Assembly: GCF_022558445.1 (NCBI RefSeq)
Contig: NZ_CP054699.1
Span: 2,154,004 to 2,178,003 of the forward strand
Direction: 5' to 3'
DNA length: 24,000 nucleotides
From: Candidatus Contubernalis alkaliaceticus
Lineage (GTDB): Bacteria > Bacillota > Dethiobacteria > SKNC01
In this document: positions 57-5,874 of the stretch, in pieces
Numbering within the stretch: the stretch's first letter is position 1
Layout: every line of letters begins with the position of its first letter
Made by a program: the position numbers and the translations under genes
Notes under the pieces: generated by a model
Database searches by the model: none
What the model was told of the DNA's origin: nothing
Seen by the model: the letters and a program-made list of their open reading frames with translations, nothing else

Positions 57-908
57 TTATCTCTCTCTAAGCTTCCGATGTAGAAGAGCATAAAAATTTA
101 CGTCGGTGAGTTTAACCAGTTTTGTATAGTAATCTGCTTTTTTTACTATTATTTCATCATCATTTTTTAATTGAAACCCCTGCTGACCATCAACAGTCAG
201 AACTACTTCTGCCTGCTGGGTATAAGCTTTGATACGGACCTTTTCATTCTCGGCTATAATCACCGAACGATGATGCATCATGTGTGGACATATGGGAGTC
301 ACCACCAAAAGGTTTAGCGCCGGATTAACAATAGGGCCCCCCGCAGATAGTGAATAACCGGTTGAACCGGTAGGGCTGGCAATAATTACCCCATCTCCCG
401 GATAAGCCTCCAAAAGATGATTATTGATATAAGTCTTCAATTTTATAGTTCGGGAAAAAGGCCCTTTAGATATAACTATATCATTTAGAGCATAAAAAGA
501 AGCTTCCACCTGACTGTTTCGAATTACTTCCGCATACAGCATCATTCTATCCTGAACTACAAACTGATTACTTACAATTTTCTCCATGGAAGACTCCAGG
601 TCTGATACTTCCACTTCAGCTAAAAATCCCACATGTCCAAGATTAATTCCCAAAATTGGTATATTGGTTCCAACAACTTTTCTGGCTGCCGCTAAAATGG
701 TTCCATCTCCCCCCAGCACCAACAGCAGATCTACCATTTCAGGAATCCGGTGAACCGGATAACCCAGTTCAGGAAGGCCCAGAAGGCTTGCACATTCTAC
801 TGTAAAAAATACCTGCAGATCATGTTCCCGGCAGAGAGTTAGAATTCTTTCTGCTGTTGCCAGTGTCTCTTCTTTTTGAAGATTTGTTATTATACCAACA
901 GCCTTCAT
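57..908 (-). CDS. nadK: NAD+ kinase
   Basis: 283-aa ORF with the GGDGT motif (VLGGDGTILAAARK), the NDIVISKG segment and the ASPTGSTGYSLSAGGPI motif typical of NadK/PpnK. GGAGG SD upstream of the ATG. Confidence 0.92.
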   Translation of the reverse strand: MKAVGIITNLQKEETLATAERILTLCREHDLQVFFTVECASLLGLPELGYPVHRIPEMVDLLLVLGGDGTILAAARKVVGTNIPILGINLGHVGFLAEVEVSDLESSMEKIVSNQFVVQDRMMLYAEVIRNSQVEASFYALNDIVISKGPFSRTIKLKTYINNHLLEAYPGDGVIIASPTGSTGYSLSAGGPIVNPALNLLVVTPICPHMMHHRSVIIAENEKVRIKAYTQQAEVVLTVDGQQGFQLKNDDEIIVKKADYYTKLVKLTDVNFYALLHRKLRER

Positions 909-947: not shown

Positions 948-1742
948 TTATAATTCTTCTACAGCCCTGCTCACCGTGGTTTCAATTAAAGAAATTAGGT
1001 CAGGGTTGTCCATAGGGTGGTTTTCAATCTCAAATAGAGCCAGGTATTCAATATTGCCCTGGGGACCTTTAATGGGAGAGAAGGTCAGTGCTGTTAGAGT
1101 ATAGCCCTGTTGTTTTGCCTGGTTCAACACAGTACCAATCACTTCCCGATGCACTTTAGGATCCTTAACTACTCCCTTTCTCCCCACTTTATCTTTTCCT
1201 GCTTCAAACTGAGGTTTGATTAAAGCAATTATTTTTTTTGTGCCGGTCCGGCGCAGTATGGGAAATATGTGTTTCAAAGATATAAAAGCCACATCCACTG
1301 TGGCTATTTCCGGTATATCCTGAATAGTATCAGGATTTAAGTAACGGATATTTGTCCTTTCAATATTTACCACCCGGGGGTCATTTCTAAGAGACCAGGC
1401 TAACTGCCCATACCCAACGTCTACGGCATATACTTTTTCAGCACCATCTTTCAGCGCACAGTGAGTAAAACCTCCGGTAGAAGCACCCACATCTATAACA
1501 ATCTTTCCAGTTAGGGAGACCTGAAACTCTTTCAACGCTTTCTCAAGTTTTAACCCTCCCCGGCTCACATAGGGAATATCTTGCTGGACCTCTATTCTTG
1601 ACGAAGGATCCACCGGGCATCCTGCCTTGTCCACCCGCTTCCCGTCAACAAATACTTTTCCCATCATAATTAATGCTTTAGCCCGGGAACGGCTGGAACA
1701 GTAACCCTTGGCAACCATCAGATTATCCAGTCGCTCTTTCAT
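948..1742 (-). CDS. tlyA: TlyA-family 16S/23S rRNA (cytidine-2'-O)-methyltransferase (hemolysin A-like)
   Basis: 264 aa. N-terminal S4-like RNA-binding segment (RLDNLMV..GYCSSRSRAKALI..G.V.V.G) followed by an FtsJ-type SAM motif (VIDVGASTGGFT). Located dxs-tlyA-nadK as in other Firmicutes. Confidence 0.9.
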   Translation of the reverse strand: MKERLDNLMVAKGYCSSRSRAKALIMMGKVFVDGKRVDKAGCPVDPSSRIEVQQDIPYVSRGGLKLEKALKEFQVSLTGKIVIDVGASTGGFTHCALKDGAEKVYAVDVGYGQLAWSLRNDPRVVNIERTNIRYLNPDTIQDIPEIATVDVAFISLKHIFPILRRTGTKKIIALIKPQFEAGKDKVGRKGVVKDPKVHREVIGTVLNQAKQQGYTLTALTFSPIKGPQGNIEYLALFEIENHPMDNPDLISLIETTVSRAVEEL

Positions 1743-1752
1743 TAGTGAATTA

Positions 1753-3660
1753 TCATCCTCTTACTGGTTTAATTTTTTTAATATCTGTAGTTCTAACCAT
1801 AGCCAATGCCTGTTGAACTACATTTTCGACGCTTAACCCACATTTTTCCAGTAGATAATCCCGTTTACCTTGTTCCACAAAATGGTCACAAATACCTAAT
1901 CTTTTCACCTCTAAATGAGCCATATCTGATGAGTCCAATAATTCAAGCACAGCACTGCCAAATCCACCCTGCAGCGTGTTATCTTCCATAGTAATTATTT
2001 TTTTACATTTATGAGCTATACTTAGTAGAAGATGATCATCTATGGGTTTTACAAACCTGGCGTTGACCAGAGTTGTTTTTAAACCGTACGTTTTCAATTC
2101 TTCAACAGCTTTACGGGCAATTGGAACCATCGCCCCCAGAGCAAAAATTGCCAGGTCTGAACCCTTTTCCAAAATTTCTGATTTACCCATTTCAATTATA
2201 TCAAAATCAAAGCCTATAGGGACTCCCACCCCATGACCCCGGGGGAACCTTATAGCCACAGGGCCATCATACTGGATGGCTGTAAATAACATGTTCTGAA
2301 GTTCTCTTTCGTCTTTAGGAGCCATGACTACCATATTAGGGATATGCCGCAAAAAGCATAGATCAAAGGTGCCCTGATGGGTTTCCCCATCTTCCCCCAC
2401 AATTCCTGCTCTATCCACAGCCAAAATCACCGGTAGTTTTTGCAAACAAATATCGTGGACAACCTGATCATAGCCCCTCTGTAGAAAGGTTGAATAAATA
2501 GCAACCACAGGCTTAAAACCCTCCTTGGCCATTCCAGCACTGAAAGTAAGGGCGTGCTGTTCGGCAATCCCTACATCAAAAAACCGGTCAGAATATTTAA
2601 ATCCAAATTTGTCCAGGCCGGTACCTGAGGGCATAGCTGCCGTTACTCCTATTATGCGTTTATCTTTTTCGGCCAATTTAATCAAAGTTTGGCTGAAAAC
2701 TTCTGTATACGTAGGGATTTTAGAATTTTTTACCGTATCTCCATTTTTTATATTGAAAGGACCTATCCCGTGAAATTTATCAGGATTCTTTTCAGCGATT
2801 TTAAATCCTTTTCCCTTTTTAGTTAAAGCATGGATAAGAACGGGCCCTTTTAATTTTTTTGCACTCATAAACACCTGCCTGAGATGATTTATATTATGTC
2901 CATCTATGGGCCCAAGATAAGTAAATCCCAGTTCTTCAAACAACATACCTGGAACCAGCAGGTATTTCAAAGTATCTTTCACTCTGCCTAAAGACTTGTA
3001 AACCGCATCCCCTATGGCTGGTATTTTTCGCGTCAAAACTTCTACGTCTTCTTTGATTCTAGAATAAGTGGGGTCTGTCCTGATCCTGCTTAAGTAAGCA
3101 GATAAACCACCTACATTTTTTGAAATGGACATTTCATTATCATTTAAAACTACTAATAAATTAGTTTTGGTATGAGAGGCATGATTTAGAGCTTCAAAAG
3201 CCATTCCTCCAGTAAGAGCCCCATCTCCAATTACAGCAATTACATGATGTTCCTCTTTCTTTAAATCCCTGGCCATAGCCATCCCCAAAGCTGCAGAAAC
3301 TGAGGTGCTGCTGTGACCGGTTTGAAATACGTCGTGTGGACTCTCTGAGCACTTAGGAAATCCACTTAAGCCGCCGTGACACCGAAGTGTTGAAAAACAA
3401 TCTTTTCTTCCGGTAAGAAGCTTATGTACGTAAGACTGATGCCCTACATCCCAAATGATTTTGTCCCGGGGGCTTTCAAAAACACTGTGTAAAGCTATAG
3501 TTAATTCTACGACTCCCAAGTTGGCTGCTAAATGTCCTCCATTTAACGAAACCGTAGTAGTTAGAGTTTCCCTAATTTCTTTAGAAAGTTGACTTAAACT
3601 TTCAGATGTTAATTTTTTTAAATCTAAGGGACTTTTAATTTCCTCAATAACTCCGGACAT
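1753..3660 (-). CDS. dxs: 1-deoxy-D-xylulose-5-phosphate synthase
   Basis: 635 aa. Contains GGHLAANLGVVELT, DVGHQSYVHK, GHSSTS, the ThDP motif IGDGALTGGMAFEALN...NDN and the transketolase-like C-terminal half (IAEQHA..). Confidence 0.96.
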   Translation of the reverse strand: MSGVIEEIKSPLDLKKLTSESLSQLSKEIRETLTTTVSLNGGHLAANLGVVELTIALHSVFESPRDKIIWDVGHQSYVHKLLTGRKDCFSTLRCHGGLSGFPKCSESPHDVFQTGHSSTSVSAALGMAMARDLKKEEHHVIAVIGDGALTGGMAFEALNHASHTKTNLLVVLNDNEMSISKNVGGLSAYLSRIRTDPTYSRIKEDVEVLTRKIPAIGDAVYKSLGRVKDTLKYLLVPGMLFEELGFTYLGPIDGHNINHLRQVFMSAKKLKGPVLIHALTKKGKGFKIAEKNPDKFHGIGPFNIKNGDTVKNSKIPTYTEVFSQTLIKLAEKDKRIIGVTAAMPSGTGLDKFGFKYSDRFFDVGIAEQHALTFSAGMAKEGFKPVVAIYSTFLQRGYDQVVHDICLQKLPVILAVDRAGIVGEDGETHQGTFDLCFLRHIPNMVVMAPKDERELQNMLFTAIQYDGPVAIRFPRGHGVGVPIGFDFDIIEMGKSEILEKGSDLAIFALGAMVPIARKAVEELKTYGLKTTLVNARFVKPIDDHLLLSIAHKCKKIITMEDNTLQGGFGSAVLELLDSSDMAHLEVKRLGICDHFVEQGKRDYLLEKCGLSVENVVQQALAMVRTTDIKKIKPVRG

Positions 3661-3669
3661 TTAACGCTC

Positions 3670-4269
3670 TCACTTTCTCTTTTTGTTTGATTTATTATTC
3701 CAAGGGATAATTCCCGGAATAAATTGATCCAGGCGAGTTAGAATCAAGCTGATCATAAAAATTATAGAATTTGCTCTTTCCAGGGCAATTATTTTTCCCA
3801 CCGCCTTACCTCCCACCGTCAAGGAAGCGATAAAGCCGGTCATAACCACACTGAACAGCGCTCTGTCAATACCCGGTTGTTCTGACACAAAACGAACCAC
3901 CAGAGCAGCTCCAATTACACCACTGACAATTCCACTAATATCACCTACTACATCGTTACAGAAATTAGCTACCTGATCTGCATTTCTTACCAAATATATG
4001 GCCCTTTTGGCACCAGAAACTTTTTTTGCAGCCTTAGCATGAAAAGGAGTCTCGTCGGCTGCTGTCGCAGCAATTCCAATGGTATCAAATATAATCCCAA
4101 TAATCACAACCAGCAACAAAATTATAAAAGAAATTATTAGTGATTGTATATTTTCTAACAAAAACTCAGAAGCTATACCTATAAGTACTGCTAAAATAAA
4201 AGTCCCTAAAGAAACGACTAAAACCCATTTTAGACGGGGACGCAAAAAATTATAATCATTATCTGACAA
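3670..4269 (-). CDS. oapA: Small polytopic membrane protein, proposed OLE-associated protein A (OapA)
   Basis: 199 aa with at least four hydrophobic helices (WVLVVSLGTFILAVLIGIA; LIISFIILLLVVIIGIIFDTIGIAA; ISGIVSGVIGAALVV; LFSVVMTGFIASLTVGG). TTG start with AAGGGTGA SD. It lies immediately 3' of the ~600-nt non-coding segment and 5' of dxs, which is the position of oapA in OLE loci. No diagnostic OapA residues could be checked from memory. Confidence 0.65.
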   Translation of the reverse strand: MSDNDYNFLRPRLKWVLVVSLGTFILAVLIGIASEFLLENIQSLIISFIILLLVVIIGIIFDTIGIAATAADETPFHAKAAKKVSGAKRAIYLVRNADQVANFCNDVVGDISGIVSGVIGAALVVRFVSEQPGIDRALFSVVMTGFIASLTVGGKAVGKIIALERANSIIFMISLILTRLDQFIPGIIPWNNKSNKKRK

Positions 4270-4284
4270 AAGATCACCCTTTTA

Positions 4285-4892
4285 AACAAAAAAAATAGAC
4301 TTAAGCTTATACAAAGTTATGCGTAGACAGTAGTCCAAAGAGTAAACGTTGCGGCTTAGGTCCAGCAGGTTTTCCCCAGTAATTACCAAATCGTTGCCGT
4401 ATTGGCGGTTACCCTTTAAAATTACTTCTACCGTGTCGCCACCGATAGGACTGGATTGCCACTTAGTCCGCACTTTAATCCCCTTTGGACCTCTCTAGAT
4501 GAGAACAGTCTAGGAGTTTTCCTCAATAATTCACCCTATCCTCTAGCCTCTTTTGCAGGGATGGTTTCGAGAAGGATGATTCTCTCCCTCCATCACCACT
4601 CAAGGCAGGCTACACTGTACACAGCTTTGGACCGCATACAGGTTCTATCCCAACCAGTAATCATTTACTTATTAGGTAATTCACCACCAAATTGGGTCTC
4701 CACGGAACCAGGGTCAACGCCTACATGCCATTGTAGATCGCCCCGATTCCTTAACCCTCAGCACCAACCCCTGACTGGGCGTCAAGAGCCAGCACCAAGA
4801 ACTTCATCGTTGTGCCCTCAGCGGATTTTTAGCCCCGCCTTCAAAGATAGGGGTATTAACTAGAATACTGCACCACCTACGCTTATTTAACT
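4285..4892 (-). ncRNA. ole: Large structured non-coding RNA, best explained as OLE (ornate, large, extremophilic) RNA
   Basis: About 690-bp gap between ispA and the membrane-protein gene with no credible CDS. Sampled 60-nt lines are ~50-60% G+C, versus ~25% in the neighbouring CDS, and the minus strand is G-rich. It has a dedicated sigma-A promoter. Short local stems and long-range complementary 7-8-mers are visible. The ispA-[RNA]-4TM protein-dxs-tlyA-nadK-recN context is the known OLE locus. Ends are approximate: the 5' end is inferred from the promoter, and the 3' end is placed before the downstream SD. Confidence 0.7.
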
Positions 4893-4897
4893 CCTAA

Positions 4898-4926
4898 AGT
4901 ATAGCATATTTTTCAAGCTGTAACAA
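4898..4926 (-). promoter_or_regulatory. Sigma-A type promoter driving the non-coding RNA (and probably the downstream membrane gene/dxs)
   Basis: Minus strand: -35 TTGTTA (4926-4921), 17-nt spacer, extended -10 TGcTATACT (4906-4898). Predicted start is near 4891-4892. Confidence 0.6.
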
Positions 4927-4961: not shown

Positions 4962-5843
4962 CTAATAATCCCTGTTAACTAAAAAATGGGCCAGGATTTT
5001 AAGCACTTCTCCTCTAGCTTCAAAAACCTCCACGGCTCTCAGGGATTCATTATATAATTCCTTAACTTTTTCCTTGGCTGCACTTAATCCGTGTATCCCC
5101 GGATAAGTAGCCTTTTCTTTCCAAGTATCCATCCCGGTCTTCTTCCCAAGCTTTTCCTCTTCTCCCTCGATATCTAAAATATCATCAATGATTTGAAAGG
5201 CCAGTCCCAAGCATTCACCATACCGTGTAAGCCTCTCCAACTCAGCCTCTGCTGCACCTGCGATTATTCCACCCACCCTGACTGATGCATTAATCAGTGC
5301 TCCGGTTTTTTTTCTGTGAATGTAATCCAGCGTTTCAGCTCCAACAGGTCTACCTTCGGATTTCAGGTCAACCACCTGTCCTCCAATCATACCTCTGGTT
5401 CCCGAGGCAAAAGCAATTTCTTGAATTACCTTTAAAGTTACTTGAGGATCAATAACAGAATCCCAAGACAAGACATCAAAAGCCATAGTAAGCAGAGCAT
5501 CTCCAGCCAGGACTGCCATGGCTTCACCATAAACCTTATGATTGGTAAGCTTACCCCGGCGATATTCATCATCATCCATAGCCGGAAGATCATCATGGAT
5601 TAGGGAATAGCAGTGTATCATCTCCAATGCACAGGCCGCCGGTAAAAACAGAGACAAATCCTGATGGTAAACATCTCCCACCGCCAGAGTTAAAATAGGC
5701 CTTAACCTTTTACCTCCCGCAAAAATACTGTATCTAATACTGTCATGAATAATATCAGGATAGGTTTTCTTTGGAGGTAGAAACCTGTCCAACGCGTCAT
5801 CCACCAACTCTTTTCTTTGCTTCAGGTATAGTTCTATCTCCAT
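4962..5843 (-). CDS. ispA: (2E,6E)-farnesyl/geranylgeranyl diphosphate synthase
   Basis: Both aspartate-rich motifs of trans-prenyltransferases are present (LIHDDLPAMDDDEYRRG and FQIIDDILD). The ORF track starts at 5855, but the GGAGG SD sits 5 nt before the second ATG (MEIELY...), so the start is taken as 5843. Confidence 0.9.
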   Translation of the reverse strand: MEIELYLKQRKELVDDALDRFLPPKKTYPDIIHDSIRYSIFAGGKRLRPILTLAVGDVYHQDLSLFLPAACALEMIHCYSLIHDDLPAMDDDEYRRGKLTNHKVYGEAMAVLAGDALLTMAFDVLSWDSVIDPQVTLKVIQEIAFASGTRGMIGGQVVDLKSEGRPVGAETLDYIHRKKTGALINASVRVGGIIAGAAEAELERLTRYGECLGLAFQIIDDILDIEGEEEKLGKKTGMDTWKEKATYPGIHGLSAAKEKVKELYNESLRAVEVFEARGEVLKILAHFLVNRDY

Positions 5844-5874
5844 AAAAACCTCCATACTTACCGGTAATCAGTTT

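Follow-up and report, generated by a model that had tools for sequence, protein, structure and literature searches.

The 199-aa reading frame that follows the OLE RNA gene in this region very probably encodes OapA (OLE-associated protein A), a small protein integral to the membrane and the partner of OLE RNA. The first-pass annotation had proposed such a partner from the DNA letters, and the proposal is supported by the presence of OLE RNA directly 5′ of the frame, by the adjacency of OLE at nearly all homologous loci, by the co-occurrence of the protein family with OLE and by the DxxxD motif of the protein. The window, i.e. the whole stretch of 24,000 nt analysed here, comes from Candidatus Contubernalis alkaliaceticus, and the genes and signals around the frame are as follows (window coordinates):

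4962..5855, minus strand, ispA-type polyprenyl synthetase gene, the upstream neighbour of OLE (PF00348, 194 bits)
4898..4926, minus strand, putative promoter-like site TTGTTA-17-TATACT with TG before the −10 (consensus scan only)
4311..4892, minus strand, full-length OLE RNA gene (Rfam RF01071, 498.9 bits, E 8e-144, model positions 1-616)
4272..4279, minus strand, Shine-Dalgarno sequence GGGTGATC of oapA (read from the sequence; arrangement kept in locus L001)
3670..4269, minus strand, oapA coding sequence, 199 aa (from the list of open reading frames; TTG start at 4269-4267, TGA stop at 3672-3670)
1753..3660, minus strand, dxs (DXP synthase) gene (PF13292, 417 bits)
948..1742, minus strand, tlyA-like gene for an S4 + FtsJ rRNA methyltransferase (PF01728, PF01479)
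57..908, minus strand, NAD kinase gene (PF20143, PF01513)

The gene order at the locus is the usual one, ispA-ole-oapA-dxs-tlyA-nadK. OLE was the single Rfam family matched in the window, and both OLE and oapA are present in one copy in the host genome. The OLE RNA that the first-pass annotation had assumed upstream of the frame is there in full length, its 3′ end separated from the TTG of oapA by 41 nt on the same strand, with oapA downstream. The promoter-like site found by the consensus scan ends 6 nt before the 5′ end of OLE. No terminator-like hairpin was detected by a scan for intrinsic terminators in the OLE-oapA spacer, and the spacer did not fold better than shuffled sequences (z −0.47). 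Since the gap is short and free of a terminator-like hairpin and a promoter-like site stands just before OLE, co-transcription of OLE and oapA is plausible as judged from the sequence. On the other side of the gene, the oapA stop codon is followed by the dxs start after 9 nt.

The frame reported in the first-pass annotation is real and lies on the minus strand, which had been left unstated, and the TTG start with its Shine-Dalgarno sequence is equally well founded. GGGTGATC, at 4279-4272, matches the complement of the 16S rRNA 3′ end over 7 nt, and the final G of its GGAGG-equivalent stands 7 nt from the TTG, a good spacing. It is very improbable that the frame was mis-called, either as a spurious frame or as a gene that starts at the internal TTG (Leu9) and encodes 191 aa, even though the database also lists a 191-aa form of the gene under an entry of its own (P0002). 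The frame did not arise by chance, because the protein database search with the 199-aa protein returned 2055 homologues at E <= 1e-3. The internal TTG was rejected as the true start: it is preceded by no Shine-Dalgarno sequence, and residues 1-9 are kept in relatives of 77-90 % identity in the family alignment. Furthermore, L001, the nearest species-level relative (80 % identical), carries AAAAGGGTGAT-N-TTG at the start of oapA and has CTG in place of the Leu9 codon. It is therefore the upstream TTG that is conserved as the start of the gene.

The closest homologues were found in Candidatus Contubernalis (91 % identity), Candidatus Syntrophonatronum (72 %) and Dethiobacter (about 51 %). In the homology comparison BH2780 of H. 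halodurans was represented by a proxy, the protein encoded next to OLE in Halalkalibacter wakoensis, which is 43 % identical to this OapA over 197 residues (E 5e-52). The sole NCBIfam match of the 199-aa protein was a meaningless one to CrcB (14.9 bits), NCBIfam having no OapA model. Sequence searches of the PDB with the single protein and with the family profile gave no match, so no structure of OapA or of a relative detectable by sequence is deposited there.

In Kyte-Doolittle plots (19-residue windows) strong peaks were obtained at about residues 16-34 (2.57), 43-61 (3.33) and 107-125 (2.07), and a moderate one at about 137-158 (1.52). Of the four clear hydrophobic helices noted in the first-pass annotation, three are therefore strong and the fourth only moderate, and besides these four the protein has an amphipathic helix (residues 166-183; hydrophobic moment 1.37, highest hydropathy 1.36). 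The AlphaFold2 model based on an 82-sequence alignment (mean pLDDT 84.6, pTM 0.76) has helices at 3-40, 44-70, 97-130, 136-164 and 166-183, together with short helices at 74-81 and 87-95 in the basic loop. A reading of helix 166-183 as a fifth span of the membrane was discarded, since the helix is amphipathic and aligns just after TM3 of CNNM domains, with a stretch which we take to be the juxtamembrane helix of the CorB/CorC structures. A fifth span is also unlikely because the basic tail would then lie outside. The four-helix prediction in the OapA literature agrees with the hydropathy of this protein. The Pfam search of the 199-aa protein revealed no domain besides CNNM and no soluble domain.

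Four segments of the protein were marked in the sequence:

3985..4044, minus strand, conserved basic loop, residues 76-95 (FHAKAAKKVSGAKRAIYLVR), with K79, A80, K83, G86 and A87 invariant or nearly so
3940..3954, minus strand, DxxxD, the OapA hallmark, D106-V-V-G-D110 within FCNDVVGDISG, with D106 and D110 invariant in the 32- and 82-member alignments
3793..3813, minus strand, GGKAVGK, residues 153-159, with G154, K155 and K159 invariant in 82 sequences
3673..3699, minus strand, basic C-terminal tail NNKSNKKRK, residues 191-199 (read from the sequence)

The DxxxD motif has been described as distinctive for OapA (Fernando & Breaker 2024, PMC11332333), and PM1, the double mutant with both aspartates changed to alanine, is dominant negative (PMC7936274). 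D62 is likewise invariant in the family alignments, as is E73, where TM2 ends on the cytoplasmic side, and TVGGKAxGK is also conserved in them. In the basic loop the alignments showed the motif HAKAAKKxxGAK, with K79, K83 and R95 conserved, and the wider loop (residues 70-100) contains 6 K/R versus 3 D/E. The positive-inside rule predicts that this loop is cytoplasmic, and the literature on RNA binding makes it a candidate RNA-binding face. The basic tail pointed out in the first-pass annotation is present at residues 191-199 and is a family trait, K/R-rich C-terminal tails being common in the OapA alignments.

The known OapA proteins, BH2780 of Halalkalibacterium halodurans and CLB_RS09010 of Clostridium botulinum, are also encoded directly 3′ of ole and are about 200 aa long. 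They share with the present protein the four predicted membrane helices and the lack of a soluble domain, the invariant DxxxD, the conserved basic loop and the basic C-terminal tail, as well as the strict co-occurrence with OLE. No essential difference was found; the TTG start of this oapA can be listed as a difference. H. halodurans OapA is a dimer that binds OLE cooperatively, and it is needed to hold OLE RNA at the membrane and for tolerance of ethanol, cold and a modest excess of Mg2+ (>2 mM) (PMC12265935, PMC7936274). The binding of at least two proteins per RNA and the localisation of OLE to the membrane go back to Block 2011, as cited in PMC12265935.

The linkage of oapA to OLE was analysed in 80 homologous loci taken from contigs, one genome per species. 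In all 40 of the 40 loci scanned with Rfam, OLE (full or truncated by the contig end) immediately precedes the gene on its own strand. With nhmmer, using the OLE of the window as the query, it was found upstream of the oapA homologue in 78 of 80 loci, and one of the two misses, L053, still has the final 56 nt of OLE where its contig begins, which brings the total to 79 of 80. The end of OLE and the protein match were a median of 72.5 nt apart, and in 73 of the 78 loci no more than 150 nt. The sole OLE-less locus is L056 (1-1062; MAG Eubacteriales S8M_St_43), where the 570 nt ahead of the oapA homologue, at the start of the contig, carry the C-terminal part of an IS3-like transposase; an insertion may have displaced OLE there, or the contig may contain an assembly join.

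The co-occurrence of the family with OLE, proposed as a check in the first-pass annotation, was all-or-none. OLE was found in 113 and the OapA family in 112 of 151 genomes of the phylum, and these were the same genomes, i.e. the family is present in 112 of the 113 OLE-positive and in none of the 38 OLE-negative genomes of the sample; as the genomes are related, the counts overstate the independent support. The single discordant genome contains only fragments of OLE at a contig end. In view of this distribution it is extremely improbable that the protein is a free-standing minimal CNNM/DUF21 transporter beside which OLE lies by coincidence. The names 'DUF21' or 'CNNM domain-containing' given to its relatives in the sources, the locus L056 and the separation of OLE from oapA in five sampled genomes speak for such a transporter, whereas the OLE adjacency of the other 79 loci, the absence of the family from all OLE-negative genomes, the fragmentary, contig-end state of OLE in the only genome that has it without the family, and the OLE binding shown biochemically for an orthologue (Block 2011, cited in PMC12265935) speak against it.

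Several variants of the pair were encountered in the survey. In the five genomes with unlinked OLE and oapA (G085, G097, G137, G010 and G004), the two are on separate contigs or 65-800 kb from each other, and OLE has the lowest scores among full-length copies, about 400-417 bits. In the sampled genome G070 of the phylum (C15:391342-392325) OLE scores only 170 bits and the adjacent oapA is split in two by TAA/TGA stops, which looks, from the sequence, like a decaying OLE/oapA pair; the same genome carries an MpfA-type CorC_HlyC gene. In L091 (2500-3830; G096:C30, very GC-rich) oapA, placed between OLE and tlyA, is encoded on the strand opposite to that of OLE, in a tail-to-tail arrangement. This orientation is a local inversion. 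The motifs of this oapA are divergent, reading GGKAAEK and ICGDVIGD, and an open frame of 765 aa at the locus is a GC artefact. Four loci (L007, L010, L046 and L079) with OLE and oapA are on MAG contigs labelled Limnocylindrales, Desulfovibrionaceae or Actinomycetota, which is explained either by an error of binning or by a rare transfer beyond Bacillota; the literature has 24 copies of OLE on record from outside this phylum.

The first-pass annotation had noted by eye a likeness of the central segment of the protein to CNNM (DUF21) transmembrane domains. The Pfam CNNM model (PF01595) aligned residues 49-179 of OapA to its positions 1-126 with 21 bits and E 3e-4, below the gathering cut-off of 28.4 bits, and in a six-frame search of the genome oapA scored 25.3 bits, still below this cut-off. 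In the family as a whole PF01595 matched 72 of 82 members at E <= 0.01 (best 4.8e-8), and many database relatives of OapA bear a precomputed PF01595 label. A profile of the 82 OapA sequences was compared by hhalign with a second profile, for which eight CNNM domains of MpfA type had been taken from genomes of the phylum that are poor in OLE. P values of 3.3e-5 (global) and 4e-4 (local) and a probability of 35-46 % were obtained for OapA residues 38-199; the register was identical in three modes, and the alignment is of low confidence.

In the Foldseek search the top structural neighbour of the AlphaFold2 model was MtCorB (7m1t; prob 1.00, TM 0.47-0.52, rmsd 4.9 Å over 145 columns), followed by 7m1u and by the membrane domain of CorC (7cfg/7cff), with TM 0.42-0.52 overall and E values of only 0.06-4. 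The model built from 32 sequences (pLDDT 69.9) gave the same top neighbours as the 82-sequence model. The impression gained by eye is thus weakly borne out by the sub-threshold Pfam match, the hhalign P values and the first place of MtCorB. The fold of OapA appears to be CNNM/DUF21-like, with CBS and CorC domains absent, the likeness being real and statistically weak on every measure. The resemblance of OapA to CNNM is already in print (Harris et al. 2019; Fernando & Breaker 2024, PMC11332333).

In comparison to the CNNM membrane domain (PF01595; 7M1T, 7M1U, 7CFG), TM1-TM3 and the juxtamembrane helix align with helices 2-4 of OapA, its short loop helices and its amphipathic helix, and OapA has an extra N-terminal membrane helix. 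In contrast to MpfA, CorB and CorC, OapA ends at residue 199, with neither the CBS pair nor a CorC_HlyC match, and unlike these exporters it works with a 600-nt RNA. DxxxD is a feature of OapA that is absent from CNNM domains (PMC11332333).

The Mg2+-site motif of CorC is Gly129-Glu130-x-x-Pro133-Lys134 (PMC7875539). In the low-confidence hhalign register this GExxPK motif is aligned to G154-K155-A-V-G158-K159 of OapA: the equivalents of Gly129 and Lys134 are kept as G154 and K159, Glu130 is replaced by the invariant Lys155, and Pro133 by the near-invariant Gly158. The positions of the TM1 motif SE..A, which contains the Ser ligands of CorC, correspond in the same register to I64/G65. Since the ligand Glu is Lys and the Pro is Gly, a CorC-like Mg2+ site would not be conserved in OapA, as far as this low-confidence alignment indicates. 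The missing proline of OapA is already in print, and the Glu-to-Lys change was not seen in the main text of Fernando & Breaker 2024 (PMC11332333); the change at the aligned metal site is offered as a lead only.

These replacements bear on the main alternative to an ion-handling OapA, namely that OapA is only an anchor or scaffold for the RNA, its CNNM-like fold docking or shielding OLE RNA in the membrane without handling ions, so that the Mg2+ phenotypes would be indirect. We regard this as rather unlikely. The loss of Glu130 and Pro133 and of the serine-ligand positions would allow a scaffold without transport, and a transport assay for any OapA is absent from both PMC12265935 and PMC11332333. 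However, the invariant DxxxD within the membrane, together with D62 and E73, would be hard to explain in a scaffold that binds neither an ion nor a polar substrate, and the dominant-negative effect of the D-to-A mutant (PMC7936274) also argues against it. So do the anticorrelation of OLE/OapA with MpfA, seen in the 151 genomes and published in PMC11332333, and the cross-rescue between the OLE/OapA and MpfA systems, an unpublished result cited in PMC12265935.

The host assembly consists of one contig of 3.56 Mb and is 100 % complete. PF01595 had no match above cut-off in it and none other than oapA itself, and CorC_HlyC had no match, i.e. no MpfA-type protein was detected in the complete genome. 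The other sampled genomes of the same class (4 of 4) also contain OLE and OapA and no CorC_HlyC. In the sample of 151 genomes, CorC_HlyC, counted in frames of 400 aa or more, was found in 35 of 113 OLE-positive in comparison to 33 of 38 OLE-negative genomes, which reproduces the published OLE/MpfA anticorrelation (PMC11332333).

As to the other proteins of the particle, that of H. halodurans requires OapA, OapB and OapC, whereas the host studied here has no detectable OapB, so its particle would be composed differently. DUF2187, which we take to be the ybzG/OapB family, was not found in the complete genome; among the genomes searched this profile matched only the Bacillus subtilis control. OapB is present in only about 60 % of OLE species (PMC11332333). 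A single gene of the L7Ae family was found in the host (G000:C1:395983-396222; L082:1483-1734), between rpoC and rpsL. This interval is presumably the YbxF position, by the gene order of B. subtilis. No YlxQ-type paralogue was detected in the host genome. YbxF is of the OapC type (PMC11332333).

The reading that we prefer is that of an ion-handling OapA partnered by OLE RNA. By the positive-inside rule the N terminus, the basic loop (residues ~71-99) and the basic tail would be cytoplasmic (N-in/C-in) and would contact OLE RNA. The CNNM-like membrane core, built around DxxxD, would handle a divalent cation, most likely in Mg2+ efflux or sensing, and OLE RNA would take the place of the regulatory domains (CBS/CorC) that MpfA-type proteins possess. 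The OLE-OapA particle would then be the sole CNNM-type device of the host cell, because the complete genome holds no MpfA-type protein. A more specific version of the proposal is doubtful, and we put it forward as a speculation: the cation site may have been rebuilt, with Glu changed to Lys and the DxxxD pair placed near the Asn90 position, so as to accept another ion or to couple ion binding to the RNA in a manner unlike that of any CNNM protein, and OLE-OapA(-YbxF), with two or three components, may be the sole CNNM-type system where neither MpfA nor OapB is present.

The OLE/OapA system and the link between OapA and CNNM are already known and published (Block 2011; Harris 2019; Fernando & Breaker 2024), and the locus is picked up by a routine search with Rfam, so the finding carries little weight as a discovery. 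Its value lies in annotation, since the entries of this protein and of its close relatives, now called 'hypothetical', 'DUF21' or 'CBS domain containing-hemolysin-like', could be named OapA. The complete genome provides a clean natural case of OLE-OapA without an MpfA-type protein and without OapB, which makes the system of this host useful when minimal systems are to be picked for structural or transport studies of the OLE particle.
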